Of a stretch of DNA of 64,000 nucleotides, positions 1 to 56,197 are shown piece by piece. Source of the stretch: an uncultured Marinoscillum sp. (GTDB taxonomy: Bacteria; Bacteroidota; Bacteroidia; Cytophagales; Cyclobacteriaceae); assembly GCA_964353015.1 (NCBI GenBank), contig CAYGUA010000006.1, forward strand, positions 42,407-106,406. Reading direction: 5' to 3'. A program made the translations under genes and the position numbers. The notes below the pieces were generated by a model that saw only the letters and a program-made list of their open reading frames with translations, ran no database searches and was not told the DNA's origin. Each line of letters begins with the position of its first letter. Within the stretch, counting starts at the first letter, position 1.

Positions 1-1014
1 GCTTCCACAAGACATGGCGGTTTTGAGACCAGTCGTTCCATTCAACTTAGCATTTTACCACCATGGTGGTTCACCTGGTGGGCATATGTCATTTACGCCA
101 CCTTATTTGCATTGCTTTTATTAATTATTTATCGTGTTCAAAAAGCAAGAACAATCAGAATAGAAAGAGAAAAAAACAGGGACCTCAAGCTCGCACAAGC
201 ACAGGAAATTGAAAAAGCATACAAGCAACTTCAGGAAACTCAAAAGCAATTGATTCATGCAGAGAAAATGGCTTCTTTAGGTGAGCTAACCGCAGGAATC
301 GCTCATGAAATTCAAAACCCACTCAATTTTGTCAACAACTTTGCTGACATCAACCGTGAATTGATAGAGGAACAAAAAGAGGAGATTCTTAATAAGAATT
401 ATGACGAAGTAGCTGCGATTGCCGATGATATCAAAGCAAACGAAGAAAAGATCATCCATCATGGAAAGCGAGCGGAAGAAATCGTGAAGAGCATGCTTCT
501 ACACTCCAGAGGAAATGAGGGCAAAAAGGAATCGATAAATATCAACAGCATCGCTGATGAATACTTGCGCCTCTCCTATCACGGCTTGAGAGCAAAAGAC
601 AAATCGTTCAATGCAGATTTCAAACTACATCTTGATGAGAACCTGCCAGAAATCGAAGTGATCCCGCAGGATATTGGAAGAGTATTCCTCAATCTGATCA
701 ACAATGCCTTTCATGCCACCACAGAAAAAGCGAGAAGTGGAATAAGTGGTTATTCGCCAACTGTGGAACTTATCACCAAGAAAAATGGCCAACAAATCGA
801 GATTACCATACAGGATAATGGAGCCGGCGTACCGGATGAGATTAAAGAAAAAATCTTTCAACCCTTCTTTACAACCAAGGCCGCTGGAACAGGAACCGGA
901 CTAGGACTTTCTCTTAGTTATGACATCATAACGAAAGGACATAATGGGACAATCTCGGTATCTAGCGAGGTAGGAGTTGGAACAACCTTTACCATAATTC
1001 TACCAATAAAATGA
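1..1014 (+). CDS. Sensor histidine kinase, C-terminal portion (5' end lies outside the window)
   Basis: Frame 1 is open from nt 1 (ASTRHGGFETSRSIQLSILPPWWFTWWAYVIYATLFALLLL...), so the listed ORF start at 112 is internal. The PPWW-x-WWAY TM segment resembles the post-Y_Y_Y TM of the 5140-8817 kinase. Motifs: H-box [14 protein letters not shown]-box [11 protein letters not shown]1 DNGAGVP, F-box FQPFFTTK, G2 GTGTGLGL. Confidence 0.9.
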   Translation, partial: ASTRHGGFETSRSIQLSILPPWWFTWWAYVIYATLFALLLLIIYRVQKARTIRIEREKNRDLKLAQAQEIEKAYKQLQETQKQLIHAEKMASLGELTAGIAHEIQNPLNFVNNFADINRELIEEQKEEILNKNYDEVAAIADDIKANEEKIIHHGKRAEEIVKSMLLHSRGNEGKKESININSIADEYLRLSYHGLRAKDKSFNADFKLHLDENLPEIEVIPQDIGRVFLNLINNAFHATTEKARSGISGYSPTVELITKKNGQQIEITIQDNGAGVPDEIKEKIFQPFFTTKAAGTGTGLGLSLSYDIITKGHNGTISVSSEVGVGTTFTIILPIK

Positions 1015-3152
1015 AGTTAAGAAGGTTCTATTCATTGATCTTCATTTCTCTTATCGCCGTGCTTCCTAGCTTTGGACAGGCGAAAACTGTTACACTCAGT
1101 GCTGACATGTTCGGAGCGCACGAGATCCTCCCACTATCCACTTTAGATGGTTGGATTTTCAAACAGGGAAGTGACATTGCATGGGCTGATAAAGATCTTG
1201 ATGAAAATGGATGGAAGTCGTTTAAGCCTACTCAGCTTTCCACAGAGTTGGAAGATCCAAATGGTAGAATCGAAGGTTGGTTTCGCATGAAAATAAAGCT
1301 AGACGAATCCTTCGTAGGAATCCCACTTGCAATAAGTAGAAACTTGTGGGCTGCAACAGATGTATTCCTTGATGGCGAGCTTATACATTCTTTTGGTAGT
1401 ACAGCGGATCCATATGTTGCATATAATCCCATCCTAAAAGAGCCAATCCCTATCAGTTTGGAAATAGGCAAGGAATACGTTTTTGCGATTCATTTTGTGG
1501 ACTATGAAACTACCTTAACCCAACGTGAGCTTCGTCTGAAGTCAGCTAATCTCAAAAGGCTAATAAATCTTACTGGTCCGCAGTATCAGGAACGTGTAAA
1601 AAGAGACTTTAAGTGGGAGTATGTATTCGGTACTTTGAGCATCGGGCTAAGCATGATCTTGTTTTTACTCTTCTGGTATTTAGTTATTCTAAATCCCAAA
1701 GTACAGATTTTTAAGCTGATCGCATGGTTAACCAGCTTTGTGCTCGTTACAGCAATTGCTATATTTTTCAGCACATTTTTTGAGATCTCCTACACTGTCG
1801 AAAAAGCGAGATTCATCATCATGGCGACCTTTCAAGCCTTATCGACGCTGTTTGGATTGTTTGTGCTTGAATGGATGCTCACCAATAAAATCTCTCATTG
1901 GTCCAAAATTATTCTGATCCTGATGTTGATGGCCAATTTACCTGCGCATCTTTTTTCCATTTCACTTCCATTTGGAATCATCTTTATTGGAATGCTCCTC
2001 TTTTACGGCACCCTCCTATTCAGAAAATGGAAAACCATTCAGGGCGCACAATGGGCAGTAATCACAGGAGTTGTTGCTTCAACGGTCGCCACTATTTTTT
2101 ATATCAGTACCCACAAGTATTTACTTGACCTTTACTACGAATACGACAAACCACTCATTTCAATGGCTATTCTCTTACAGCCAATATTCCTGTTAGGATA
2201 TGTTTCTGCACGATTGAACGAAACCCTGAAAGAAGCCTATGAAGAAGGTCAGAAAGTATTGAAAATAACAGAGGAAAAACGAGAGTTACTTGCGAATCAA
2301 AATACAATATTGGAAAAGCAAGTAAAAGAACGTACCGAGGAATTGAATCAGTCCTTAGAAAATCTCAAATCAACCCAAACCCAACTCATTCATTCTGAGA
2401 AAATGGCCTCTCTTGGAGAGCTCACAGCAGGTATTGCACATGAGATACAAAACCCACTCAACTTCGTCAATAACTTCTCTGATCTGAATAAAGAACTATT
2501 AGAAGAATTAAAGGCAGCATTAGCCCAAAACGACATTGAAGAAGTGGAAGCCATTCTGATTGACCTTTTGGAAAATGAAACCAAGATCAATCACCATGGA
2601 AAACGCGCTGAGGGAATCGTCAAAAGTATGCTTCAACACTCGCGTACAGGTTCAGTAGAAAAGGCGCTCACCGACATCAACTTATTGGCTGATGAATACC
2701 TGAGGCTTGCTTATCATGGTTTGCGAGCAAAGGACTCTTCCTTCAATGCTGACTTTAAAACTGAACTGGACCCAGCCCTACCCAAAATAAATGTGGTGTC
2801 ACAAGATATTGGAAGGGTTATTTTGAATCTGATCAACAATGCCTTTCAGGCCGTCAGGAAATTGAAAAAACCAGAGGTGATTGTAAGTACTCACCTCAAA
2901 GGAGACCAAATAGAAATACAGGTCAAAGACAATGGCCCAGGCATTCCTGATAATATAAAAGACAAAATATTTCAGCCATTCTTTACAACCAAGCCAACAG
3001 GCGAAGGAACTGGGCTCGGTTTGAGTATGAGTTATGATATCATAACAAAAGGGCATGGAGGATCTTTAAAAGTAGAGTCCCAGGTAGCAGAAACTGATGA
3101 TAAAAGAGAAACAGGATCCATATTCATTATCCAATTACCAATTATACTATGA
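1011..3152 (+). CDS. Sensor histidine kinase with 7TMR-DISM-type sensor (extracytoplasmic DISMED2-like domain plus about 7 TM helices)
   Basis: Signal peptide MKLRRFYSLIFISLIAVLPSFGQA, then about 190 aa of extracytoplasmic domain and a block of about seven hydrophobic helices. A coiled coil follows, then H-box [11 protein letters not shown] and N/G1/F/G2 boxes. The ATG overlaps the upstream stop (ATGA at 1011-1014). Confidence 0.9.
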   Translation: MKLRRFYSLIFISLIAVLPSFGQAKTVTLSADMFGAHEILPLSTLDGWIFKQGSDIAWADKDLDENGWKSFKPTQLSTELEDPNGRIEGWFRMKIKLDESFVGIPLAISRNLWAATDVFLDGELIHSFGSTADPYVAYNPILKEPIPISLEIGKEYVFAIHFVDYETTLTQRELRLKSANLKRLINLTGPQYQERVKRDFKWEYVFGTLSIGLSMILFLLFWYLVILNPKVQIFKLIAWLTSFVLVTAIAIFFSTFFEISYTVEKARFIIMATFQALSTLFGLFVLEWMLTNKISHWSKIILILMLMANLPAHLFSISLPFGIIFIGMLLFYGTLLFRKWKTIQGAQWAVITGVVASTVATIFYISTHKYLLDLYYEYDKPLISMAILLQPIFLLGYVSARLNETLKEAYEEGQKVLKITEEKRELLANQNTILEKQVKERTEELNQSLENLKSTQTQLIHSEKMASLGELTAGIAHEIQNPLNFVNNFSDLNKELLEELKAALAQNDIEEVEAILIDLLENETKINHHGKRAEGIVKSMLQHSRTGSVEKALTDINLLADEYLRLAYHGLRAKDSSFNADFKTELDPALPKINVVSQDIGRVILNLINNAFQAVRKLKKPEVIVSTHLKGDQIEIQVKDNGPGIPDNIKDKIFQPFFTTKPTGEGTGLGLSMSYDIITKGHGGSLKVESQVAETDDKRETGSIFIIQLPIIL
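2361..3061 (+). repeat. Transmitter-module repeat, copy A (paralogous to 4325-5025)
   Basis: Aligns without net indel to 4325-5025 at a constant offset of 1964 nt. The 3' ~470 nt are near-identical by eye. At protein level, [10 protein letters not shown]...ITKGHGG shows 7 differences in 159 residues, counted from the supplied translations. Confidence 0.85.
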
Positions 3153-5092
3153 TAAAGAACTTGAGTCTAGTCGTCATTTTAGCATTTAGCTGGGTATTTG
3201 GCTTTGGTCAAAATAAGTATTCAGATAGTTTAAAATCTATATTAAAAACAACTACAAATCCAGTTGATAGGTTTGATCTGCTTAACAATATCCTTTTGGA
3301 CATTACGAGTTACAGAGGAAGCAATATTGATTCATTAACAACCATGGAGATGGTTCAGATTGCTCAGCAACAAAACAATGATTCCCTGTTGGCTATTTCT
3401 TACAATTGGTTGGCTTCATTTTTCTACCAACAAAAAGGAGACAATGTTACGGCCCTGGAATACTATTTTAAAGCCATTCCTCTAGCCGAGACAACAAATG
3501 ACAAAAGACGAATAAGCTCTATATATTTTGACATGGCTTTGGTCTATTTCGATATGCTTGATTATGAAATGGCGCTAGGAGTAACGAGAAAAGGTGGTGA
3601 AAACCTACCTCCTAAATCGCACCCTATGTATTATTTTATGCTCATTCAATATCAGGCCAACCTTGTTCAATATTTTCTAATCAAAAATAATGCGGACTCT
3701 GCCTTTCATTATGCTTTGGGAGCTCGTGAAACTTTGGCGCATTTTAACAAAGGCAGTACATACAATTTCTTAGACCTCACCAATTTTGCTGCGGTTCATG
3801 CAATCTCAGGTGATACACAAAGTGCTGATGAATACTTCAAAGACGCACTTGTCTTACAAGATTCTGTTGAAAACATAACTTCCCAATTATATTTTTTCAA
3901 CAACTATCTTCCATTTCTCTTAGCCAATGACAGATATGCAGAAGGAGTCAGCGAAAGTAAAAAACTCTTAAATATGGGTTGGCAGGCTGATAACAATAAC
4001 TTAAAACTTGCTGGGGCTGCTTTTTTAAGACAGTTTTATGACGCCCTGAATCAAATAGATAGCGCATATTATTACTCTCGGTTAGAGGCAAAAATTAGCT
4101 CTCAGATCTTCAGCCAGGAAAACAAAAACAAAATTCAGGCATTGGCATTTAGTAACCAGTTGAGAAGTATTGAAGAAGAAAATAAAGCAATAGCCTATCA
4201 AAATCAACTAAAGCAATACGTGCTCATTGGTGGACTTTTGATGACATTGTTGATTGCGTTAATTCTATTTTACAATAATCGGCAAAAGCAAAAGGGAAAT
4301 AAAGTTTTGGAGGAGACTTTAAGAAATCTCCAATCAACGCAATCCCAACTCATTCAATCAGAAAAAATGGCCTCTCTTGGAGAGCTGACAGCTGGCATAG
4401 CTCATGAGATTCAGAACCCACTCAACTTTGTCAATAACTTCTCTGATCTCAATAAAGAGTTGATTGATGAGCAGCTGGAAGAATTAGAAAAGGGAGACAT
4501 TGCAGAAGCTAAACTCATAGCAGCTGATATTCGAGAAAACGAATTAAAAATCAATCACCACGGAAAAAGAGCTGAAGGAATCGTCAAAAGTATGCTTCAA
4601 CACTCGCGTACAGGCTCTGTAGAAAAGGAGCTCACCGACATCAACTTATTGGCTGATGAATACCTGCGGCTTGCTTATCATGGATTACGTGCAAAAGATT
4701 CTTCCTTCAATGCTGACTTTAGAACTGAACTGGATCCTTCCCTACCCAAAATCAATGTAGTGTCACAAGACATTGGAAGGGTTATTTTGAATCTGATCAA
4801 CAACGCCTTTCAGGCCGTCAGGAAATTGGAAAAACCAGAGGTAATTGTAAGTACTCATCTCAGAGGCGGCCAAATAGAAATACAGGTCAAAGACAATGGC
4901 CCAGGCATTCCTGATAGCATCAAAGACAAAATATTTCAGCCATTCTTTACCACTAAGCCAACTGGTGAGGGAACTGGACTTGGATTGAGCATGAGTTATG
5001 ACATCATAACCAAAGGACATGGAGGGACAATCAAAGTAGTGAGTGAGGAAGGATCGGGGACAAAATTTGAAATTCAATTACCCATTTTATGA
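3149..5092 (+). CDS. Sensor histidine kinase with TPR-like helical-repeat sensor and a single TM helix
   Basis: N-terminal signal/anchor (LSLVVILAFSWVFGFGQ), then about 350 aa of helical-repeat sequence with TPR-like A/Y/F periodicity. One TM helix (YVLIGGLLMTLLIALILFY) precedes the same H-box/HATPase_c transmitter. ATGA overlap with the upstream gene at 3149-3152. Confidence 0.9.
   Translation: MIKNLSLVVILAFSWVFGFGQNKYSDSLKSILKTTTNPVDRFDLLNNILLDITSYRGSNIDSLTTMEMVQIAQQQNNDSLLAISYNWLASFFYQQKGDNVTALEYYFKAIPLAETTNDKRRISSIYFDMALVYFDMLDYEMALGVTRKGGENLPPKSHPMYYFMLIQYQANLVQYFLIKNNADSAFHYALGARETLAHFNKGSTYNFLDLTNFAAVHAISGDTQSADEYFKDALVLQDSVENITSQLYFFNNYLPFLLANDRYAEGVSESKKLLNMGWQADNNNLKLAGAAFLRQFYDALNQIDSAYYYSRLEAKISSQIFSQENKNKIQALAFSNQLRSIEEENKAIAYQNQLKQYVLIGGLLMTLLIALILFYNNRQKQKGNKVLEETLRNLQSTQSQLIQSEKMASLGELTAGIAHEIQNPLNFVNNFSDLNKELIDEQLEELEKGDIAEAKLIAADIRENELKINHHGKRAEGIVKSMLQHSRTGSVEKELTDINLLADEYLRLAYHGLRAKDSSFNADFRTELDPSLPKINVVSQDIGRVILNLINNAFQAVRKLEKPEVIVSTHLRGGQIEIQVKDNGPGIPDSIKDKIFQPFFTTKPTGEGTGLGLSMSYDIITKGHGGTIKVVSEEGSGTKFEIQLPIL
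4325..5025 (+). repeat. Transmitter-module repeat, copy B (paralogous to 2361-3061)
   Basis: See copy A. The antisense shadow ORFs 2799-3056 and 4763-5077 are also near-identical, as expected for a recent DNA-level duplication or gene conversion. Confidence 0.85.
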
Positions 5093-5139
5093 CATTTATT
5101 TAACCTCAAACTTTTAAATAATCCGCATTAACTTTAAAA

Positions 5140-8100
5140 ATGACTGACCTATTTAAACCTTCGTACCAAATATACTTCTTGCTGACCAGCATGCTTCTGA
5201 TTAGTGCGTGCGACAACAATCGAAACGTTCCGTTTCCAGTTGATGACACCAGATTGGTACACACAAAGGAACGACCTTTTGCTTTCGCAGACACGACTTC
5301 AATCAGTTGGTCATTGGTTGCGGAGAACTTGACTCTTTCGCCTCCTCAGAAGCTTAATCTTGACAAAATACCTTCAGAACCATTTGAAATCGGAGAACCA
5401 TTTCCCTTGAAGCAACCAATGGATGAACAAGCCTTCGACTGGGATAACTTGCCAGATTCTGCATTTGATTTTAGTTCACTTCCTGACAAGCCTATCAAGA
5501 TAAAAACAAAACTACTTCAACCACCGACCATAGTTAAGGCTGGTCAGCCTTCTCCTACTTCTGGTGCTACCCGCGGTATCCTGGATATGGGATTCAATCT
5601 GGGACTTCCCGCAGAAGGAAAAGTCTTCCTGAAGGATGAAAATGGATTGATCTGGATAGGTACAAATGGAGGAGGTCTCTGCCGGTATGATGGAACCAAT
5701 TTGGAAATTTATGGAAGAGAACAAGGTTTATTGGACAACAATATTTGGTCCCTCTTCCAAGACGATGATAAGAGGATTTGGATAGGCTCACGATTTGGCA
5801 TCAATATACTTGATCGCGATAAGGGAGTCGTTCATGAATTGATACATGATATTCCACATTTTTCTATATTATCCATAATGCAGGATCGAGAAGGATTAAT
5901 ATGGTATGCCTCACAAAATCACGGCGTATTTGTTCTTGATTTAGAATCAAAAAGCTTAAAAGAAATAGGCAAAAAAGAAGGATTAGACGAACGATTAAAT
6001 TTGAAAATCTTTCAGGACGACAAGGGGTTAATTTGGATCACATCCATGCAAGGTCTTTTTATTCTGGATAAGCAAGCGAAGATCAGAAAAAGAATAACGT
6101 CAAAGGAAGGCTTGATGACAGATCAGGTTTTTAATCTAATACAAGATAGTGAAGGCAATTATTGGTTTGCTCAGAACGATGGAGTACAGGTGCTAGAGCT
6201 TAAAAATCAAAAGATTAGCAGTCTAAATGATAAGCAAGGATTAGCGGAAGGTATTTTCATCGATGCATTGTTACAAGATAAGGATGGTAAAATTTGGTTT
6301 GGGACGGGAAGAGGACACCTATACTCCTTTGATCAAAAAAGTAACTCACTTGAGAATCTAAAAATATTGGATGGAACCGATAATAGTAGTCTGGTTCTTT
6401 CATTAGTTGAGGATGAATCTGGACAAATCTGGATTGGCACAATCAGTAGAGATAGCTATGTTTTTGATGCAGAAATGGGACGACCGGCCAACTTGACTAA
6501 AGCTGATCATGTGAGTGGTTTGTCGATTTGGTCAACACTTACAGATTCAGACGGAAATACATGGATAGGCAATACCGGCAGGGTATTCGACATCTATTTT
6601 CCAAAGACTAAATCAATCAAACATTTTGGGATTGAACAAGGGTTAAAGGTCAGTGGTGTAATTCGATTTGTTCAGAAAAACGAGGAAGAAATAATTGTTT
6701 ATAGTTCTGGTAGTCCCTTTCTCAATTTTGTCAACTTAAAAAAGGGAACAATACGTTACATGGAGATTAAGTTAGCAATCTTTTTGCGCTACATGATAGT
6801 AGACACCAATGAAACCATGTGGATTTGTTCTGATAATGGGGACGTCTACAAGATTGAAAATGGTGTCATGCGTAAAATGGACCAAACTGTAAATATAACC
6901 AATAGAATAGGCGTCTTAGCCTTAGATCAGAAAGAACGCATTTGGATTGGATCCAATGAAGATGGTATCACGGTAATTGATCCGAAAAATAGCACTTCGA
7001 TGAGACTGAGTACTGATGAAGGACTTATTTCCAACCTAACAACTTCCTACATTAATGCTTCGGATGGGAAAATTTGGATAGGGACAGAAGGGGGCATCAG
7101 TAGAATAGACATGAATTCGGGAATGATCAGCAACCTAACGGAAAAGGAAGGACTTCTCAATAACGATATTTGGACCCTTAATGAATTTGACAATGATGTA
7201 TATGTAGGCACAACAAAAGGTCTGTCTATAATGAGTCCACTTGGAGATGCTAGTCATAAGTGGAGGACACTTAATTATGAGCGCCAACAAGGATTATCGG
7301 AGATTGACTTTGACAACAATAGTGGGAGTTTTACTAAAGATGGCCAATTTTGGGCTGGTGTTAATATTGCTGTTTTGACAGTAATAGATCGACCAAAATT
7401 AGATTCATCAATACAAAAACCACACATAACTAGTGTGAAGGTTATTGACGAGCCGTTCAATTTCTACAAATCTTCTGCTTTTGGCAAAGCGCTAAATGAG
7501 ATTGATACCTTATGGACAACCTCAGGTGAATTTATATTAAACAACAAACAGATTCTTATCGACAGTTTAATTAGTCTGGACAAAGGGATGACCTGGGAGC
7601 GCATTGATCCTGTTTACCATCTACCAGTTAACCTTCAGCTTCCTTACAATAAGAATTATTTCAGTTTTACTTATGCAGCCAATGATTTGAAAAACCCAAA
7701 TCATATTCGGTACAGATATATATTGGAAGGAATCGATCAAAATTGGAGCGCCATAACAAGCAATACTACCAGTGAGAATTATAGAGATTTACCACCGGGT
7801 AATTACACGTTCAAAGTATCGAGTAGCGGAAGTAATGGACTGTGGAGTGAGCCGGCAACATTTGATTTCCTAATTACACCTCCTTGGTGGAAAACCTGGT
7901 GGGCATATACCATCATGGCAGTCTTAGGCTTGTCCCTTTTAAGAGGATATGTCTCTGTCAGGTCTCGCACATTGAAAAGGCAAAATGCTATCTTGGAAGA
8001 AAAAGTAGCCATCCGTACCAATGCTCTTGAAAAGTCGTTAAACGACCTAAAATCAACACAATCACAATTGATTCACTCGGAAAAAATGGCTTCTCTTGGA

Positions 8101-8817
8101 GAACTCACCGCTGGCATTGCCCACGAAATCCAAAATCCTCTAAACTTCGTCAACAACTTTTCAGATTTGAATCGTGAACTTATTGAAGAGCAGCTGGAAG
8201 AACTGGATAAGGGAAATATAGAAGAGGCTAAAGATCTTGCGAAAGACATACAAGATAATGAGGCCAAGATAATCCATCATGGAAAACGCGCCGAAGGAAT
8301 TGTAAGGAGTATGCTCCTGCACTCGCGAGGCAATGAAGGAGCTAAGGAATCAACAGATCTCAATCTCCTTTGTGATGAATATCTAAGATTGGCATTTCAT
8401 GGCCTAAGAGCTAAGGATCGATCATTTAGTTCAGATTTCAAACTAGATCTGGATCAAAATATACCCAAAGTAGATGTGATCCCTCAGGACATGGGGAGAG
8501 TATTACTTAACCTGATTAATAATGCTTTTCATGCAGTGAAGAAAGTGGGAAAACCTGAGGTGGTAGTAAGCACCAGATTAAATAAAGATTACGTCGAGAT
8601 CCTGATAGAGGATAATGGATCGGGTATCCCTGATAATATCAAGGAAAAGATTTTCCAACCATTCTTTACCACCAAGCCAACTGGCGAGGGAACCGGTCTT
8701 GGTTTAAGTATGAGCTATGATATCATAACAAAAGGGCACAACGGAAAGATTGTGCTAGAAAGCCAAGAAGGATTAGGAACCAAGTTTATAATTTCATTAC
8801 CAACCAAAATAAGTTAA
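5140..8817 (+). CDS. Sensor histidine kinase with beta-propeller (Reg_prop repeats) plus Y_Y_Y sensor domain
   Basis: N-terminal lipoprotein-like signal ([14 protein letters not shown]). Many repeats of the G-LW/IWIGT type (e.g. [50 protein letters not shown]). Y_Y_Y-like segment ([15 protein letters not shown]...PGNYTFKV), TM helix ([21 protein letters not shown]), coiled coil, then H-box [11 protein letters not shown] and HATPase_c motifs. Confidence 0.92.
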
Positions 8818-8820
8818 AAT

Positions 8821-9198
8821 ATGAAAATACTAGTAGTAGATGACGAAAAGGACATCCAGCCCTTATTTCAGCAGAGATTTCGCAAAGAAATAAAGAGCAA
8901 TGAAATAGAGATTGAGTTTGTGCTGTCTGGTGAGGAAGCATTGGCCTATATTGAAAAAAATGGCCACAGCAACAGTCTTATCCTTTCGGACATCAATATG
9001 CCTGGAATGAGTGGCCTGGAACTTCTTGAAAAAATTAAAAAAACCTATACACCCCCACCACCAATCATTATGATGATCTCGGCGTATGGCGATCAGGAAA
9101 ATCGTGATACCGCTCACAACTTAGGAGCTGAGGAATTTTTCACAAAACCTCTCGACTTCAACTTACTTAAAGAAAGAATCAAATCACTAGCCTTATGA
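8821..9198 (+). CDS. Stand-alone response-regulator receiver (CheY-like, no output domain)
   Basis: 125 aa. Acidic pocket VVDDE, phospho-acceptor context LILSDINMPGMSG, and conserved SAYGD / KP motifs. The start lies 3 nt after the upstream stop. Confidence 0.9.
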   Translation: MKILVVDDEKDIQPLFQQRFRKEIKSNEIEIEFVLSGEEALAYIEKNGHSNSLILSDINMPGMSGLELLEKIKKTYTPPPPIIMMISAYGDQENRDTAHNLGAEEFFTKPLDFNLLKERIKSLAL

Positions 9199-10337
9199 CA
9201 CGCATTCTAGTTGTAGATGACGAACCGGATCTGGAAGCATTAATAAAGCAGCGATTCCGCAAGCAAATAAAAGAAAATGGATATGATTTTTTATTTGCAG
9301 GGAATGGTCGCGAAGCATTAGAATCTCTGGCACAAAACAAAGATGTCGATCTGGTTTTGACGGATATCAATATGCCAGAAATGGACGGATTAACGCTATT
9401 GTCGCAACTGAATAATGAAAAATATTTTTTAGAGACAATCATTGTTTCTGCCTATGGTGATATGGATAATATTCGCACAGCCATGAACCTTGGAGCCTTT
9501 GATTTTATCACAAAACCGATTGACTTTAAAGATCTGGAAGTCACCATGTCTAAGACAATCAAACACGTGCTCCAATTAAAAGAAAATGCGGAGACGCTCA
9601 GAGAGAACGATACGCTCAAGATCTATTTGAATGAAATCAACGCACAGAAAAAACTGAAAGATCGGTTTTTCGCCATCATTTCACACGATTTGAGAGGGCC
9701 TGTAAATTCATTCCAAGGTCTTGGAGCAATCCTGGAAAACTACATCCAAAAGAAAAAATACAATGAACTGGAAGCAATGATCTCTGAAGTCGGGCAAGCG
9801 ACTGATCAGCTGTCACGATTGCTGGACAACCTGCTAAACTGGGCTTCTTCCGAGTTGAGCATTATCCCTTATAATCCAGTGAAAATTGATGCTTCTCAAA
9901 TGATTGAAGATCTGATTCAAATCTTTCACTCCTCTGCCAAGGTTAAAAATATTGCGCTAACCAACTCTGTTCCATCAGGTACTTTTATCTGGGCAGACTT
10001 AAACACCACATTGACCATTTTCAGAAATTTGATCAACAATGCACTGAAATTTACAGAAGAAAATGGCTCGATAGAAATAGCTGCACAAGCGGATAATGAG
10101 TTTATATCAATTTCGGTAATAGACTCAGGTATAGGCGTGCCACCGGAAAAACTGTCCGAAATTTTCAAATTATCGGAGCACGCGAGCACCTATGGCACAC
10201 ATGGCGAAAAAGGTGTGGGTCTTGGATTGCAGCTGGTAAATGAATTTGTGAAAATGAACAAGGCTAAGGTTCATGTAGCTAGTAAACCTGGTGATGGAAC
10301 CACATTTACCGTTTCACTGCCAGCAAATAAAAATTAA
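9195..10337 (+). CDS. Response-regulator/histidine-kinase hybrid (REC-HisKA-HATPase_c)
   Basis: The N-terminal REC is paralogous to 8821-9198 (VVDDEPD, LVLTDINMPEMDG, SAYGD, KP). It is followed by H-box FFAIISHDLRGPVNSF, N-box FRNLINNALKFT, G1 DSGIGVP and G2 GVGLGLQL. ATGA overlap with the upstream gene at 9195-9198. Confidence 0.9.
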   Translation: MTRILVVDDEPDLEALIKQRFRKQIKENGYDFLFAGNGREALESLAQNKDVDLVLTDINMPEMDGLTLLSQLNNEKYFLETIIVSAYGDMDNIRTAMNLGAFDFITKPIDFKDLEVTMSKTIKHVLQLKENAETLRENDTLKIYLNEINAQKKLKDRFFAIISHDLRGPVNSFQGLGAILENYIQKKKYNELEAMISEVGQATDQLSRLLDNLLNWASSELSIIPYNPVKIDASQMIEDLIQIFHSSAKVKNIALTNSVPSGTFIWADLNTTLTIFRNLINNALKFTEENGSIEIAAQADNEFISISVIDSGIGVPPEKLSEIFKLSEHASTYGTHGEKGVGLGLQLVNEFVKMNKAKVHVASKPGDGTTFTVSLPANKN

Positions 10338-10338
10338 G

Positions 10339-10719
10339 TTATTCGATAATCTGCCTAATCAATTCTTCCAGCCTTTCAGCACTCTGCACATCACCCTTGT
10401 TGATGTATCCTGACACACTTGGTAACTTTTCTTCAGGTGCAAAATTCAAAGACGAAACAATAATAATTCGTGGTGGATTATCCATTTTGGCCAATCTAGG
10501 ACCTACCCAATCCACCAGATAGTTTCCATCCACATGGGGCATCTCCATGTCTAAAAACAAGATGTCAGGATTGATAGTAAAAATGGACTTGGCGCCCAAT
10601 ATTGGGTTATTAGAAGTTTCTACAAGATTTAGCCATTCAATATCCTCTATAAAGATTGAGAGTTTTCGAAGAAAAAGCGGATCATCATCGATAGCGAGGC
10701 ATTTGTAGGTTTTGGTCAT
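10339..10719 (-). CDS. Stand-alone response-regulator receiver (no output domain)
   Basis: 126 aa. AIDDDP acidic pocket and ILFLDMEMPHVDG phospho-acceptor context. Its stop codon is 1 nt from the stop codon of the convergent hybrid kinase. Confidence 0.85.
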   Translation of the reverse strand: MTKTYKCLAIDDDPLFLRKLSIFIEDIEWLNLVETSNNPILGAKSIFTINPDILFLDMEMPHVDGNYLVDWVGPRLAKMDNPPRIIIVSSLNFAPEEKLPSVSGYINKGDVQSAERLEELIRQIIE

Positions 10720-10956
10720 AGCAGGTGAATTTTTTCAAAAATACAGGATAAAGATAAATGACATAGTACAAACATCTAAGGCTTTGTACCATGACTAAAG
10801 GGTTTTACCAATTTTTCAAATAAAAACGAACCGAAATTCAATTAACATCAAGTCATAATTACCAATAATATTATCACCACTTGTTCACTCATTATAACTC
10901 AAAAGCAACCCTGCCATTTTTCGCACGTCTTTAACCGAAACCTAAAATTTGTCTCA

Positions 10957-11652
10957 ATGAAAAACTTCACATTTACGCTATTATTTATCCTCTCAGTGTG
11001 CTTATCATACACCACCACAGCCCAAAAAAGAACAATCGACTTCTCGCCATTTCAGGAAATAAGCTTCGGAATACCAGGCAAGCTATATCTCCGTCAGGGA
11101 CCTCAAAGTGTGGAAATAGATTGCGATGACGATATTTATGAAAAGATCAAATTTAGAATCTCAGGAAATAAATTGATCATCGAATCAAACAGCAGCTGGG
11201 GCTGGAACAACATCCAAAAATCTGATGTCACACTCTATGTATCCATGGAAAATATAGAAGAAATCAACCTGAGCGGATCTGGTGAGGTGATTGGTGAAGG
11301 TGAATTCGAAACTGGCGACCTAAGTATTAGCATAAGCGGTTCTGGGAATATGAACCTGAATGCATCCGCGAATTATATAACCACCACCATATCAGGATCA
11401 GGAAGAATCAATCTTGAGGGAAATGCAGAAAAAATGAAAGCTAGGATTAGTGGATCAGGCAATGTGAAAGCCGACAACTTTATCGTAGATATTGTGGACG
11501 CTTCCATCAGCGGGTCAGGTGATGTTTATATCACTGCTAAGGAAGAAATAACAGCCCATATATCTGGTAGTGGCAATGTTTACTACAATGGTGATCCCAA
11601 ACGAAAAGACGCTCACGCCTCAGGCAGTGGCAAGATCAGAAAGATGAATTAA
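10957..11652 (+). CDS. Secreted DUF2807 / GIN-domain (beta-helix, adhesin-head-like) protein
   Basis: Signal peptide (FTFTLLFILSVCLSYTTTAQ). SGSG-containing repeats recur at a roughly 20-25 aa period (LSGSGEV, ISGSGNM, ISGSGRI, ISGSGNV, ISGSGDV, ISGSGNV, ASGSGKI), which is typical of DUF2807. Confidence 0.8.
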   Translation: MKNFTFTLLFILSVCLSYTTTAQKRTIDFSPFQEISFGIPGKLYLRQGPQSVEIDCDDDIYEKIKFRISGNKLIIESNSSWGWNNIQKSDVTLYVSMENIEEINLSGSGEVIGEGEFETGDLSISISGSGNMNLNASANYITTTISGSGRINLEGNAEKMKARISGSGNVKADNFIVDIVDASISGSGDVYITAKEEITAHISGSGNVYYNGDPKRKDAHASGSGKIRKMN

Positions 11653-11698
11653 TTAAAAGGCTAAAGCTGACTTGATAGATAAAAAAATTATCACATGT

Positions 11699-11748
11699 AA
11701 TTCACAAATCAAAATACTATCAGTTGATAGTATTTTGATTTGTGAATT
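11699..11748. repeat. Perfect 24-bp-arm inverted repeat (long hairpin), 47 nt downstream of the GIN-domain gene stop
   Basis: AATTCACAAATCAAAATACTATCA-GT-TGATAGTATTTTGATTTGTGAATT. The arms 11699-11722 and 11725-11748 are exact reverse complements. The stem is AT-rich with no flanking T-run, so this is not a canonical intrinsic terminator. Confidence 0.9.
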
Positions 11749-11776
11749 ATTGTTAATTTGCAATGCCTTAGACTGT

Positions 11777-11792
11777 ATACTATCAGTTGATA
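11777..11792. repeat. Second copy of the hairpin core (ATACTATCAGTTGATA)
   Basis: The 16-nt string at 11777-11792 is identical to 11714-11729, 63 bp away. It contains the TATCA-GT-TGATA palindromic core. Confidence 0.85.
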
Positions 11793-11827
11793 TAATTAAC
11801 ATTAATTCGGTTTGTAAGTTACACATT

Positions 11828-12019
11828 GTGAAAAAAGGTATTATCTGGTTTGACGGAAACCAATTTCAGGCAGGATCTGAACAAGAATTTTCTAAAGCGA
11901 TGACAAATAAAGGTGTGCGTGTTATGAATGGTTTCAATCACGTCTCTTTGGAAGAAGCTGTCGTCATGGTTAAAAATCTCAATAGTTCAAATGTGCTCAA
12001 CCAAATGAAAAAGAAGTAA
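11828..12019 (+). CDS. Possible small hypothetical protein (63 aa, GTG start). The listed 115-aa ORF from TTG 11672 runs through the hairpin and is probably over-extended.
   Basis: Only the 3' part (VKKGIIWFDGNQFQAGSEQEFSKAMTNKGVRVMNGFNHVSLEEAVVMVKNL...) has protein-like composition. I recognise no motif. Confidence 0.25.
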   Translation: MKKGIIWFDGNQFQAGSEQEFSKAMTNKGVRVMNGFNHVSLEEAVVMVKNLNSSNVLNQMKKK

Positions 12020-49329: not shown

Positions 49330-51660
49330 GTGACTCGAAAGATCATTCTACTTATTTGTCTTTTGATTTTCTCTGAAATCATTCAGGCTCAGGTAGTAAA
49401 ACACGGGTTGGCACAATTCGATTCCCTAGAAAATCCAGTAAAGCTGGATGGTGAATGGGAATATTATCCAAATCAAATTTTAAATACGGGTGAATTTGAT
49501 TCATCAATAGAAAAATCATATCGAAACTTTCCGGGGACATGGGATATGCCCATAGGATATGCCACTTATAGAATGGCTTTGATCCTAAATCCAAAGGGTC
49601 AATGGGCGTTAAAAACACCGCCGCTTTATGGTGCCTTTGAATGTTATTTGAATGGAAATCTCATTTCCAAAAACGGGAAAGTCGGCAAAACCGAAGAAAC
49701 AAATTCTCCAAGATGGGAGCAAATCACTGTACACCTAGAAAACTCAATCCTTCGTGATACCAATGAATTGGTAATTCACATTGCCAATTTTCGGCACAGT
49801 AGAGGAGGACCCGTGGATAGCATTATTTTAGGTCCGAATGACGCATTGATGAAAGGAAAAGATTTGATAGAAAAATTTGATTCTTTTCTTACTGGAGCCC
49901 TCATCATGGGTGGATTATTTTTCCTTGGTCTGTTCCTCTATGGAAAACAACAGCGAAACATCCTGTATTTCTCCTTACTCTGTATTTCCTTTTCCTATTA
50001 TATCATCGGCAGTTCAAATTATGTTTTGAATGGCCTTTACCCTGATCTACCGTGGTGGCTCACATCCCGTCTTGAATATATTTCGCTCTATCTGTCTATA
50101 ATTTTTATTGCGAAATTCACCGAAAGCACTTATCCCGAGGAAACACCAAAAATCATCAATCGGCCGTTTACTTATATGGCCATATTTTATTTGGCACTTC
50201 CTATTTTCACGCCAATATCAGTATTTACGTCGCTTCATATTTATTTCTTGTATGTCACGATCTTCATGTTGATTGTTGCCATTTACATCTATGCCAGAGC
50301 CGCAATCAACAAAAGAACAGGATCGATATACTCACTAATTAGCACTTCGATATTGATGGTGGTTTTACTGTTAAGAGCGATGAATGTTTTAGAAATCTAC
50401 ACTGCTCCTATCTACATCATTCCACTTGGATACATGATTTTCTTTTTTCTTCATTCTCTTACATTATCTCAACAGTTTGCCATCAATTGGCAAAATGCCA
50501 AGGAAGATGCCGAAGCTTCATTGAAGGCAAAATCAGAATTTCTCTCAATTATGTCTCACGAGATTCGCACACCTCTGAATGGTGTGATCGGCATGGTACA
50601 CCATTTACTGATGAGTCAGCCCAGAGCTGATCAAGTGGAAACGATCAATTCGCTCAAGTTCTCCTCAGACAACCTTCTCAGCTTGATCAATAACATCCTT
50701 GATTTCAACAAAATTGAGGCTGGTAAAATTGAATTTTCCAATAATACCTTTGATCTTAAGGAGCTTGGCAACAACATCATTTCAGGATTCAAACCGCAGG
50801 CTGAGCAGAAAGAAAATAATATAAATTTTGTTTGCGTGACACCTCATGATTTGATTGTGAAAAGCGACAAAGGAAAATTATCTCAAGTACTTTCTAATCT
50901 GATCAGCAATGCAGTGAAGTTTACTAAAAACGGATCAATCACTCTTGCAATAGAAGAATTAGACAGATCAGAAAAAGAAGTAACTGTCAGGTTCAAAGTA
51001 TCTGACACTGGAATTGGCATTGAACCCAGCAAAATGAATATGATTTTTGATACTTTCAGTCAGGCTGATTCTAATATTCATGAAAATTACGGTGGGACAG
51101 GATTAGGGCTTACCATTTCCAAAAAACTCCTTCAACTGCAGGGAAGTGACATTCAGGTAAAAAGCAAGATTGGAAAAGGTTCAGAATTCTCATTTGAACA
51201 GATTTTTACCATCGGTGACAACATAAAATCAATGAAATCAAACAAAACAAACCCATTGCTAGCTGAATCATATCTCACTGGATACAACATTCTTCTTGTT
51301 GAAGACAATGCGATGAACGTCCTGGTGGTTCGTAAATACTTAAACAATTGGGATGCTACTTGCACACTTGCCAACGATGGTCAGGAAGCCATCGATATTT
51401 ATAACGATAAGCTAATCGATGCAATATTGATGGATATCCAAATGCCAATTTTAGATGGATATGAAACAACCAGAAAATTAAGAAGCAATGGTGTGAAAGT
51501 GCCAATTATCGCTTTAACAGCCGCGGCATCAGATGACATCACCAAAAAAGTAGAAGAATCAGGCATGGATGATTTCATCATTAAGCCTTATCATCCGGAG
51601 GAACTATTTCAAAAATTAAGAGCCCATTTAACAATGGAGCCTAAATCATTGAAGAAATAG
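49330..51660 (+). CDS. Hybrid sensor histidine kinase / response regulator with 7TMR-DISM sensor
   Basis: GTG start. Signal peptide. DISMED2-like domain ([13 protein letters not shown]...[12 protein letters not shown]) and about 7 TM helices. H-box [11 protein letters not shown], HATPase_c motifs (NAVKFT, DTGIGI, GGTGLGL) and a C-terminal REC ([18 protein letters not shown]). Confidence 0.9.
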
Positions 51661-54235: not shown

Positions 54236-56197
54236 GTGAAGCTACCCGAATTTGAACTTCTTGCTCCTGTTTACGACGAGGCTCACGAAATATTTCTCAA
54301 TCAGGGAGACATACTTACGGAGCAATTCGCCAAGGCGGATTATTTCTATTTTCTGATTGAAGGAGAAGTCAGTTTTTTCCTAAATGTCGAAGAAGGACTT
54401 GAAGAACTTCAGGTTGGCAATACAAATGAACCAATGACTCCCATTGGCTGGAGTGGACTTATTTCCCCAAACAGATATGCTTCAACATCAAAAATATCTT
54501 CTACAACAGCCAAGCTTTTGTGTTGGGAGTTTTCAGCACTGGAAGAAAAACTCAAGGACAATGATCTCAGCAATGCATTGATCAAACTTATTTGCTCAAG
54601 ATGTACCTTTCTGATTAGAGAAGCCATTGATTTGCTGAGTTCTTTTTCACCAAACATAACAGGAGAACAGGCGCTTGTTTCTCTGGAAGAATTTCAAAAT
54701 ACACGACTACCTGAAGAACAGGATATTGTTCAATTCTTAAGAAAATCTCCATTTTTCGAAATCTTCGAAGAAGATCAGCTGGAATTCCTCGCGAGACATG
54801 TAGAAAGACGTCAATTCCGAGTGAACGATACTGTATACGAGCAGGAAAATATGATCGAAGGGATTTATATATTAGTTTCTGGGAAAATCACTTTCACATA
54901 CACTGATCCGCAAGACAAGACAATCGGATTTCGAAATATGAATACTCCTGGATTCATGGTAGGATGGACTGCTTCAATCGGAGCAAAAACCCTCATGAAC
55001 GCCACCGCATTACAGGAATCTGTTTTGTATTACATACCAACAACCGCCCTACTGTGGATTTCGAACCGTGATTCCAATTTCGCAAGAGAGTTTCATTACA
55101 GATTGCTTTGGTTGATAGGGCATCAACTTCAGGCGATCCGGACGCGATTCATTTCGCTAAAATTCAACAGAGAAATCATAGCCATCAGCAATCTGATAGA
55201 GCAAAACAGTACAAATTTAGATTTGTGGTCCCCTTTGCATAAAGTGCCACATTTACTTCAAAACAAACTCACCATAGAAAATGCTGTGGATATTCTCACC
55301 AAGCTGAAGCAAGATGGAGATGCGCTGGAAAGAAACATTTCTTCCCTTTGCCTTGACACCATGAATGAGGTGACTAAAGAGTTGAAATTTTATTCCGGCC
55401 TGGTTGGCGTATATCAGTCAGTAGTAAAGCAGCCAGAAAATAAGCCTGCAGATGAAGTGAGAAAAATCTGTGCTGAAAATTTTTCCAAAGTATTCGAAAA
55501 TACATCTACAATAATTTCCGGCTGGTCAAACCTGCCAGACGAACCTGGTCACATATTCATTTATAACCATCTGAGAAATCATCCATACAACACCTTACCA
55601 AACAATTTTCAAATAACTCTGGATTCTCATTTCATCAGTTCGGAAATCCTTTATAAAAAATATGGTGATCCGGGAATTAGAATTGTGAGGATTGGGCGAG
55701 GCGGTGAGTACGCACATCAGGATTATTATCAGAGACTTGGACATATCGATGTTTACACCAATGAATCTGATCCAAAAACCAATACAAAAGAATATCGTGA
55801 TGAGAAAAGAAAGGAATTTTACGATTTCGCGCAATCGTATTTAAGGAATAAAAACAATTTGTTGATCAGTCCTGAAGGCACCTCTTTTAGCACGGAAGAA
55901 TCTCCGGGAGCCTTTAAATCCGGGGCTTTTAGGCTCGCCTTGAATTGCAATCCTGAGCCACTCATCGTTCCCATATCCATTGCTAACTTTGATAAGAGGG
56001 TAAGGAAAAATACTTTTTCAGTAATTATCAACAAACCATTTAAAGTAAGCGAGTACATCAAAGACACACAAAGCAAAACCGACATGAAAATTTTCCTCAA
56101 GGATCTAAGAAAAAAATACTCCGACTATGTGGGAGAAGCGGTTTTGCAATCAACCGAACAAATTAAAAAGTCCGCCAATGGAAGAACAGGGGTTTGA
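54236..56197 (+). CDS. Fusion protein: two cyclic-nucleotide-binding-like domains plus a helical linker plus a lysophospholipid acyltransferase (PlsC/LPLAT-like) domain
   Basis: cNMP-type beta-barrel patterns occur at about aa 1-115 (GDILTEQFAKADYFYFLIEGEVSF...PIGWSGLISPNRYASTS) and about aa 165-285 (SPFFEIFEEDQLEFLARH...IYILVSGKITF). LPLAT motifs occur at aa 444 (YNH), 546 (SPEGTS), 560 (FKSGAFRLA) and 575 (PLIVPISI). There is a GTG start and no in-frame ATG until residue 67. Confidence 0.7.
   Translation: MKLPEFELLAPVYDEAHEIFLNQGDILTEQFAKADYFYFLIEGEVSFFLNVEEGLEELQVGNTNEPMTPIGWSGLISPNRYASTSKISSTTAKLLCWEFSALEEKLKDNDLSNALIKLICSRCTFLIREAIDLLSSFSPNITGEQALVSLEEFQNTRLPEEQDIVQFLRKSPFFEIFEEDQLEFLARHVERRQFRVNDTVYEQENMIEGIYILVSGKITFTYTDPQDKTIGFRNMNTPGFMVGWTASIGAKTLMNATALQESVLYYIPTTALLWISNRDSNFAREFHYRLLWLIGHQLQAIRTRFISLKFNREIIAISNLIEQNSTNLDLWSPLHKVPHLLQNKLTIENAVDILTKLKQDGDALERNISSLCLDTMNEVTKELKFYSGLVGVYQSVVKQPENKPADEVRKICAENFSKVFENTSTIISGWSNLPDEPGHIFIYNHLRNHPYNTLPNNFQITLDSHFISSEILYKKYGDPGIRIVRIGRGGEYAHQDYYQRLGHIDVYTNESDPKTNTKEYRDEKRKEFYDFAQSYLRNKNNLLISPEGTSFSTEESPGAFKSGAFRLALNCNPEPLIVPISIANFDKRVRKNTFSVIINKPFKVSEYIKDTQSKTDMKIFLKDLRKKYSDYVGEAVLQSTEQIKKSANGRTGV

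Follow-up and report, generated by a model that had tools for sequence, protein, structure and literature searches.

The first 10.7 kb of a 64-kb stretch of DNA from an uncultured Marinoscillum sp. (contig CAYGUA010000006.1; the whole stretch is called the window, and all coordinates refer to it) encode four tandem sensor histidine kinases (K1-K4), a stand-alone receiver (R1), a receiver joined to a second kinase (RK) and, on the opposite strand, another stand-alone receiver (R3) (Table 1). Comparison with related loci indicates that this locus is a lineage-specific variant of a Bacteroidota module composed of a kinase array, R1 and a receiver-effector protein, the effector usually being a class III nucleotide cyclase. 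The locus probably functions as a two-tier phosphorylation cascade (we put the probability at roughly 0.6), in which K1-K4 would phosphorylate R1 and the receiver of RK, and RK would phosphorylate R3. In the original prediction, signals from several sensors met at a CheY-like receiver and a receiver-gated kinase within an array that lacked an output; the convergence fits the comparative genomics, whereas the module as a family is not output-less.

A conserved module of kinase array, receiver and receiver-effector

Eight loci with RK orthologs were examined (L001-L006, L170 and the window), and all eight contain a kinase array, R1 and RK, then an R3-like receiver. The R1-RK-R3 triad is retained in these ortholog loci (57-98% identity), while the genes that flank it downstream vary between loci. 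The arrays range from two to at least five kinases, with sensors that include Y_Y_Y propellers, TPR, seven-transmembrane (7TM), GAF and SnoaL_3 types and a 1776-aa Ser/Thr-kinase-AAA-GAF protein. Conservation of array, R1, RK and R3 in every RK-ortholog locus examined led us to reject a random pile-up of paralogs, the outcome of the synteny comparison that would have spoken against the original prediction.

A scan of species-representative genomes with an RK profile returned 80 loci, which were annotated with hidden Markov models (HMMs) built from the window proteins. At approximately 50 of these, one to five or more kinases with the transmitter type of K1-K4 (K-type) precede an R1-like receiver of ~125 aa and then a protein of ~346 aa. 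The receiver of the latter is ~65% identical to that of RK, and Pfam resolves the protein into Response_reg and Guanylate_cyc, a class III nucleotide cyclase. The module loci span Chitinophagaceae, Saprospiraceae, Flavobacteriaceae, Cytophagales and Bacteroidales. Other occupants of the RK slot are REC-HisKA-HATPase-REC-AraC (L007), REC-HK-REC, REC-HK-REC-Hpt and REC-SpoIIE proteins (REC, receiver; HK, histidine kinase), and an R1-like receiver precedes the slot at 66 loci. Among the 57 loci whose sequence extends 1.5 kb or more upstream of R1, K-type kinases lie directly upstream of R1 in 53 (at least one), 39 (at least two) or 25 (at least three); these counts are lower bounds, as the flanks end at 10 kb. 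Gaps between genes of the module are mostly -3 to +50 nt. By Pfam, the 94 sensor regions of the arrays comprise 29 with TPR, 17 with Reg_prop/Y_Y_Y, six with SnoaL_3, four true 7TMR-DISM, four with HAMP and three with GAF.

The conservation of the array kinases extends to the surface that is expected to contact receivers. In 130 array kinases, most columns of DHp helices 1 and 2 reach 90% conservation or more, and the receivers of R1 and of the REC-effector proteins are conserved to a similar degree and have similar alpha1 helices. One docking surface and two paralogous receivers are as a many-to-one or branched design predicts. The window has the kinases followed by R1, but the next receiver is fused to HisKA and HATPase_c and not to Guanylate_cyc; because the RK slot holds a kinase instead of a cyclase, the window is regarded as a variant of the module and not as a standard member. 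Systems with several converging kinases, with single-domain receivers as hubs or with receiver-controlled kinases are of kinds already known. A search of the literature found no description of the tandem Bacteroidota module of kinase array, R1 and REC-cyclase, of its usual cyclase output or of the RK/R3 variant, which is not proof of absence.

Several module loci contain additional genes. A 486-aa protein with HD, YitT_membrane and DUF2179 domains is encoded 12-37 nt after the REC-cyclase gene in L033 (11436-12896) and 15 other loci, and may be a conserved downstream component or a cyclic nucleotide monophosphate (cNMP)-related effector. A 198-aa PycTM protein (Pycsar effector) is encoded directly after the REC-cyclase gene in L032 (11462-12058), with a related gene at a second locus; it would be a cyclic-nucleotide-activated membrane effector in a signaling context, not a defense context. 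The array of L170 (1966-9618) includes an RPE65 carotenoid-oxygenase gene and the 1776-aa kinase (Pkinase-AAA_16-GAF), which carries the array transmitter type. In L007 (8336-9493), a REC-SpoIIE protein (PP2C phosphatase) with an RK-type receiver is encoded just upstream of the REC-HK-REC-AraC protein. Related REC-kinase genes occur outside Bacteroidota in Dankookia rubra (L027), cyanobacteria (L017, L021 and L025) and Abditibacterium (L020), and L027 combines a K-type kinase, an R1-like receiver and two consecutive REC-effector genes.

RK is a receiver-kinase chimera

RK consists of Response_reg (3e-27), HisKA (1.3e-08) and HATPase_c (2.6e-23), with no other domain in Pfam. Its receiver is 47.5% identical to R1 and has a similar alpha1 helix, in agreement with the predicted pair of a stand-alone receiver and a hybrid with a paralogous receiver. 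Residues D8, D9, D57, S85 and K107 of the receiver are invariant in 14 orthologs, as are H164, N278, N282, D310/G312/G314 and G340/G342/G344 of the kinase core (H-box and N, G1 and G2 boxes). A linker of ~45 residues (116-160), which reads as helical, joins the two. With a receiver that contains a phospho-acceptor pocket, a complete kinase core and no other sensor domain, RK has the composition of the REC-DHp-CA proteins (LvrB class; CA, the catalytic domain). The RK transmitter is only 24% identical to the K-type transmitter and is of a different class, resembling those of TorS, FimS and HK853.

The two parts of RK have separate relatives. Residues 1-147 are 65% identical to the receiver and linker of REC-Guanylate_cyc proteins in L033, L043 and L078, and residues 148-380 match, at 50-51% identity, kinases of 387-410 aa that have an N-terminal cNMP_binding domain. 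By these matches RK is a chimera, with the front of a receiver-cyclase and the transmitter of a cNMP-binding kinase. RK orthologs (379-401 aa, 57-100% identity) are found in metagenome-assembled genomes labeled Cyclobacteriaceae and in Ekhidna (the triad of Ekhidna lutea DSM 19307 is L006), beyond which identity drops sharply to ~40%. We propose that, in an Ekhidna/Marinoscillum-related clade, a cNMP-binding kinase supplied the transmitter that took the place of the cyclase, and its partner R3 was acquired along with that transmitter.

R3 and its pairing with RK-type transmitters

R3 was correctly recognized as a third, convergent stand-alone receiver: its Pfam match is weak, but its phospho-acceptor residues are conserved and its modeled fold is complete. 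Across the R3 family there is no variation in the D11-13 acidic pocket, at D57 or at K108, and almost none at S90. An AlphaFold2 model (predicted local distance difference test score, pLDDT, of 90) has a complete receiver fold with a short alpha4 and no extra domain. R3 is only 22% identical to R1, and its alpha1 helix differs from those of R1 and the RK receiver; by sequence it is not a paralog of either. The family is rare. A word-seeded search found 19 relatives, all stand-alone, and the R3 profile gave seven matches at E<=1e-30 among 1.84 billion representatives; close members are all stand-alone proteins of 108-154 aa. In metagenomes, only three short proteins matched the R3 profile over their full length, and the other matches were ordinary REC-LytTR regulators. 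The best NCBIfam matches include BtsR and CheB, and the sequences closest to R3 outside its family are receivers from REC-LytTR proteins of 223-241 aa (31-40% identity over residues 6-90). R3 is a receiver of the LytTR-regulator type, but without the C-terminal LytTR DNA-binding domain.

In L001-L006, R3 is conserved adjoining RK. L170, the most distant of the RK-ortholog loci, has no receiver directly after RK; three genes past RK it encodes a multi-transmembrane kinase whose transmitter is RK-type (49% identical), and a convergent receiver with 50% identity to R3 comes next. The distance from RK to the R3 of this locus is 3.4 kb, and the neighbor of that R3 is a second RK-type kinase. In L085, a convergent 125-aa receiver with 49% identity to R3 comes after a cNMP-binding kinase whose transmitter is likewise RK-type. 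An RK-type transmitter with a convergent R3-like receiver is therefore found under three inputs: a receiver (window and L001-L006), a cNMP-binding domain (L085) and a multi-transmembrane sensor (L170). This recurrence is the strongest evidence available that R3 is a substrate of RK, and R3 is likely the cognate acceptor of the RK transmitter and the terminal acceptor of the locus.

R3-like receivers were also observed beside LytTR proteins that lack a receiver. In L087 (820-4397), one adjoins a 419-aa 7TMR-DISM-LytTR membrane protein, with a convergent cNMP-binding kinase also present, and in L088 (2909-3941), another adjoins a 190-aa transmembrane LytTR protein. Each arrangement may be a split LytTR regulator. 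It is a tentative and rather unlikely extension of the chimera that RK is a "Rosetta-stone" fusion, recording a route across Bacteroidota from the array to the REC-cyclase, a cyclic nucleotide, a cNMP-binding kinase and an R3-type receiver. In such a route R3 might control receiver-less membrane LytTR proteins, as in L087 and L088, and the messenger step would have been short-circuited in the Ekhidna-related clade.

Array kinases share a transmitter and differ in sensors

HisKA and HATPase_c were found by Pfam in all four array kinases, and the predicted single transmitter type was borne out. The K1-K4 transmitters are pairwise 61-81% identical, with the common motif [27 protein letters not shown] / [28 protein letters not shown]; all four agree exactly in DHp helix 1 ([29 protein letters not shown]) and almost exactly in helix 2. 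An HMM of the K-type transmitter has four matches within the first 8.8 kb of the window but no match in its remaining 55 kb, which indicates that the clustering is not due to chance. The transmitter had also been called unusual, with a long insert, which does not hold: it is of the common FixL/ThkA/ZraS/AtoS/NtrB class, its best NCBIfam and PDB relatives being AtoS, ZraS, FixL, ThkA, CckA and LvrB, and its DHp hairpin is only ~10-16 residues longer than in ThkA or FixL. Homologs are labeled "NtrC family sensor kinase" in the sources.

The propeller/Y_Y_Y sensor had been predicted at least once and probably twice, and it is present in K4 by Pfam and in K1 through the L001 counterpart of K1. The 5' end of K1 lies beyond the start of the window, and its N-terminal architecture was taken from this counterpart (95% DNA identity), which is full length (1161 aa) and has Reg_prop and Y_Y_Y; look-ups with the exact sequences of K2 and RK had matched no contig that reaches further upstream. 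In K4, HATPase_c extends to residue 1223 of 1225, and there is no C-terminal receiver or AraC domain. The TPR-like sensor corresponds to TPR_12 in K3.

The assignment of K2 to 7TMR-DISM survives as architecture and fails as family membership. K2 has no match to PF07695 or PF07696, the 7TMR-DISM families of Pfam, at E<=5; none of ~120 listed homologs of its sensor has a 7TMR-DISM or any other sensor annotation; and hhalign of the K2 sensor against true DISM sensors gave a probability of 1%. As a positive control, the DISM models readily match a 776-aa open reading frame (ORF) at 49330-51660. An AlphaFold2 model of K2 (pLDDT 83) places beta strands at residues 26-188, forming a beta-sandwich ectodomain, and seven helices from 190 to ~400, with a continuous helix leading into DHp; a hydropathy scan also gave seven membrane segments. 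The modeled architecture of K2 is thus analogous to that of 7TMR-DISM proteins, but membership in the family is not supported. A link between the K2 and DISM sensors in jackhmmer was rejected, given the hhalign probability, as drift through transmembrane and coiled-coil segments. Foldseek with the whole K2 model returned kinase cores only and was uninformative on the ectodomain.

Two further proteins relate to the K2 sensor or to the comparison made with it. P0258 has a homolog of the K2 ectodomain and 7TM sensor fused directly to Guanylate_cyc in place of the kinase, indicating that the same sensor can drive a cyclase without a phosphorelay. The control ORF at 49330-51660 (+) encodes a hybrid kinase with 7TMR-DISM_7TM, HisKA, HATPase_c and a C-terminal receiver, and its transmitter is unrelated to the array type.

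Proposed cascade and alternative explanations

In the first tier of the proposed cascade, K1-K4 would sense different cues in the periplasm or at the surface through unrelated domains (two beta-propeller/Y_Y_Y sensors, one TPR sensor and one ectodomain with 7TM) and would then autophosphorylate. Having the same response-regulator docking surface, they would phosphorylate R1 and the N-terminal receiver of RK. In the second tier, the phosphorylated receiver would switch on the RK kinase core, presumably as in LvrB, with the linker helices forming a coiled coil, the CA domain being freed and autophosphorylation beginning. The RK core would then phosphorylate R3. As R3 has no effector domain, R3~P would have to act by binding another protein. 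R1 is probably a competing acceptor (a sink) or a feedback modulator.

Several observations weigh against this cascade. We infer the phosphotransfer steps and the roles of R1 and R3 from adjacency and conservation. No kinase lies directly upstream of R1 in four of the 57 loci. The R3-like gene of L087 is ~2 kb from the cNMP-binding kinase and not adjacent to it, and in L086 no R3 is found in the vicinity. The AtoS/NtrB/FixL class of transmitter often pairs with NtrC-type regulators, which could be encoded elsewhere. Among the window ORFs scanned (most of those of at least 180 aa), there are no LytTR proteins or response regulators with an output domain. Scans for sigma-70 promoters and intrinsic terminators gave results at chance level with a tool that has no Bacteroidota promoter model.

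R1 could itself be the output, acting like CheY on a cellular machine, with RK reduced to a sink for phosphate or a phosphatase that modulates the level of R1~P and with R3 in a separate circuit. No partner of the arrays is more constant than R1, which is found in the same slot in all 66 loci whatever gene comes next, and single-domain receivers that act by binding proteins are well known. The next gene, however, always encodes a paralogous receiver with an effector (cyclase, SpoIIE, HK-REC-AraC or HK), pointing to that gene as the output; the invariant catalytic boxes of RK and the recurrence of the R3/RK-type transmitter pairing in three contexts also argue against this explanation, and it is unlikely. 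A different role for RK would be that of an ATP-independent relay, in which phosphate passes from the K kinases to the RK receiver, the RK DHp histidine and R3, so that RK takes the part that an Hpt protein, missing here, has in a classical phosphorelay. An Hpt domain was indeed not found at the locus, and other Bacteroidota have related REC-HK-REC-Hpt proteins. The N, G1 and G2 boxes that bind ATP are invariant across RK orthologs, which would not be expected of a pure relay, and LvrB, the only REC-DHp-CA kinase studied in depth, autophosphorylates with ATP after activation of its receiver; a relay function is consequently very improbable.

It is also conceivable that the adjacency is historical only, and that K1-K4, as products of tandem duplication, target unlinked regulators such as those of the NtrC type, while the neighboring receivers serve other kinases. 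The usual pairing of this transmitter class with NtrC-family regulators and the fast gain and loss of array members are consistent with such a history. We give it little credence, given that this kinase type is linked to R1 and a REC-effector in 53 of 57 loci from several families, with genes overlapping or nearly touching, and that the DHp surface is nearly invariant in the 130 array kinases, which is how kinases with a single common partner should look. We also rejected a chemotaxis-like system, there being no CheA, CheW or methyl-accepting chemotaxis protein among the window ORFs scanned.

Comparison with known systems

The phylum-wide form of the module (kinase array, R1 and REC-cyclase) is matched by the DivJ/PleC-DivK/PleD system of Caulobacter, in which several kinases act on a single-domain receiver and a paralogous receiver-cyclase encoded by adjacent genes. 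Unlike that system, the module has a class III adenylate/guanylate cyclase and not a GGDEF cyclase, and its kinases are encoded in the cluster; the window has a kinase in place of the cyclase. The homology with DivK/PleD is confined to generic receiver domains. The RedCDEF operon of Myxococcus encodes only kinases and receivers, has no output domain and signals by phosphate flow. The present locus likewise consists of kinases and receivers only, but RedCDEF differs in the order and number of domains and has no kinase array; the two are likened by architecture alone. K4 and K1 resemble the hybrid two-component systems of Bacteroides in having a Reg_prop and Y_Y_Y periplasmic sensor, a transmembrane segment and a kinase core, whereas the K4 polypeptide has no C-terminal receiver or AraC domain and its transmitter is of another class. 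The related locus L007 holds a REC-HK-REC-AraC protein in the RK slot.

The closest model for the activation of RK is the LvrA-LvrB-LvrC system of Leptospira, the prototype of the receiver-controlled histidine kinases (PMC13269768; PMC5863495). Phosphorylation of the LvrB receiver by LvrA leads to formation of a coiled coil and release of the CA domain, after which LvrB passes phosphate to LvrC (PMC13269768). RK has the same order of receiver, helical linker, DHp and CA with no other sensor, an upstream kinase is encoded adjacent to it, and a separate downstream receiver is its likely target. Activation by receiver phosphorylation through a linker coiled coil and CA release is thus the best available model for RK. 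RK is nevertheless not an LvrB ortholog: LvrB is absent from the best 60 of 81 PDB sequence matches to RK, and the transmitter that resembles that of LvrB is that of K1-K4. The present locus also differs from LvrAB in having at least four upstream kinases and an additional stand-alone receiver, and LvrC is a receiver with an anti-sigma domain, whereas R3 has no effector domain.

Convergence of many sensors on shared receivers, with single-domain receivers as hubs, is a feature shared with KinA-E/Spo0F, LuxN/LuxQ/CqsS-LuxU, GacS/RetS/LadS and Pak-PhyR/SdrG (PMC5992135, PMC5898713). The kinases of those networks are mostly scattered in the genome and have diverged transmitters. The array kinases of the window, in contrast, are encoded in tandem, have a nearly identical docking surface and exchange transmitter segments by recombination.

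Recombination in the array

L001 comes from a close relative (RK 98% identical) and has only two kinases. Its DNA aligns with positions 1-3055 of the window at 95% identity and with 8047-11658 at 92%. In a sliding-window comparison, the second L001 kinase is a mosaic of K2, K3 and K4: it has the K2 sensor, a transmitter body 97-100% identical to K3 and a 3' end 95-98% identical to K4. Within the window, the transmitter DNA of K2 and K3 is 87-97% identical across ~450 nt, other pairs being ~50-80% identical. The K3 sensor has a 75%-identical ortholog in the array of L002, and a TPR kinase is also present in the array of E. lutea; for this reason, it is simpler to suppose that the L001 lineage lost the K3 and K4 sensors. 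Sequence comparison points to recombination and gene conversion between the transmitter-coding repeats as the processes that add, remove and re-pair sensors, and hence to the pattern of "one transmitter, many sensors". The predicted re-wiring of a Y_Y_Y sensor onto a separate transmitter is present, as one of many sensor swaps in these arrays. A phase-variable sensor "shufflon" is not claimed, since ordinary homologous recombination explains the mosaics equally well.

Gene organization and the rest of the window

The seven genes and their junctions agree with the original prediction. ATGA overlaps at K1/K2, K2/K3 and R1/RK were confirmed by inspection of the sequence; K4 is preceded by a gap of 47 nt and separated from R1 by 3 nt. 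RK and R3 are convergent, with stop codons 1 nt apart. No further Pfam domain was detected in the seven proteins, and none even at E<=5 in R1 and R3. The predicted lack of an output domain therefore holds for all seven by Pfam, including the three receiver proteins, in which a cryptic output domain had been looked for.

Table 1. Genes, gene parts and repeats of the kinase array locus
Feature	Position	Strand	Domains and evidence
K1, sensor histidine kinase, 3' part (transmembrane segment, DHp, HATPase_c)	1..1014 (ORF <1-1014)	+	Pfam HisKA, HATPase_c
K2, sensor histidine kinase, 713 aa	1011..3152	+	Signal peptide, predicted beta-sandwich ectodomain (~26-188), 7 transmembrane helices, long helix into DHp, CA domain
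K3, sensor histidine kinase, 647 aa	3149..5092	+	Periplasmic TPR sensor, one transmembrane segment; TPR_12, HisKA, HATPase_c
K4, sensor histidine kinase, 1225 aa	5140..8817	+	Pfam Reg_prop beta-propellers 3.5e-30, Y_Y_Y 1.5e-14
R1, stand-alone receiver, 125 aa	8821..9198	+	Response_reg 1e-22, no other domain; D8, D9, D57, S87, K109
RK, N-terminal part (REC and helical linker, residues 1-147)	9195..9635	+	65% identity to REC-Guanylate_cyc proteins
RK, C-terminal part (HisKA and HATPase_c transmitter)	9636..10337	+	50-51% identity to cNMP_binding-HisKA-HATPase_c kinases
R3, stand-alone receiver, 126 aa	10339..10719	-	Response_reg weak, 32 bits, just over cut-off
Transmitter-coding repeats	K1 202-1011, K2 2337-3149, K3 4301-5089, K4 8020-8814	+	DNA identity among copies

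Beyond R3, an intergenic region of 237 nt (10720-10956) precedes a divergent DUF2807 gene, and a 115-aa ORF further downstream (11672-12019) has no Pfam match. The remainder of the window encodes housekeeping functions in the ORFs scanned. One protein of 653 aa (54236-56197, +) has cNMP_binding and acyltransferase domains in Pfam, indicating that this organism still reads cyclic nucleotides and has not wholly lost cNMP signaling; its kinase-array module lacks a cyclase, yet it encodes a cNMP-binding protein. Small custom HMMs for LytTR, cNMP-binding and cyclase domains gave no match in the window, a result of little weight since they missed this Pfam-detected protein.

Implications

Bacteroidota have many "orphan" sensor kinases, and for most of these no partner is known. 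The module links one large family of kinases, in which a single transmitter is joined to TPR, propeller/Y_Y_Y, 7TM, GAF, SnoaL or other sensors, with two defined receivers and a defined output slot. The arrays offer a natural example of how multikinase networks are built and remodeled, by recombination between repeated transmitter-coding segments. Finally, the RK chimera suggests a testable link between two-component signaling, cyclic nucleotides and rare single-domain receivers in a phylum in which cNMP signaling has been little studied.

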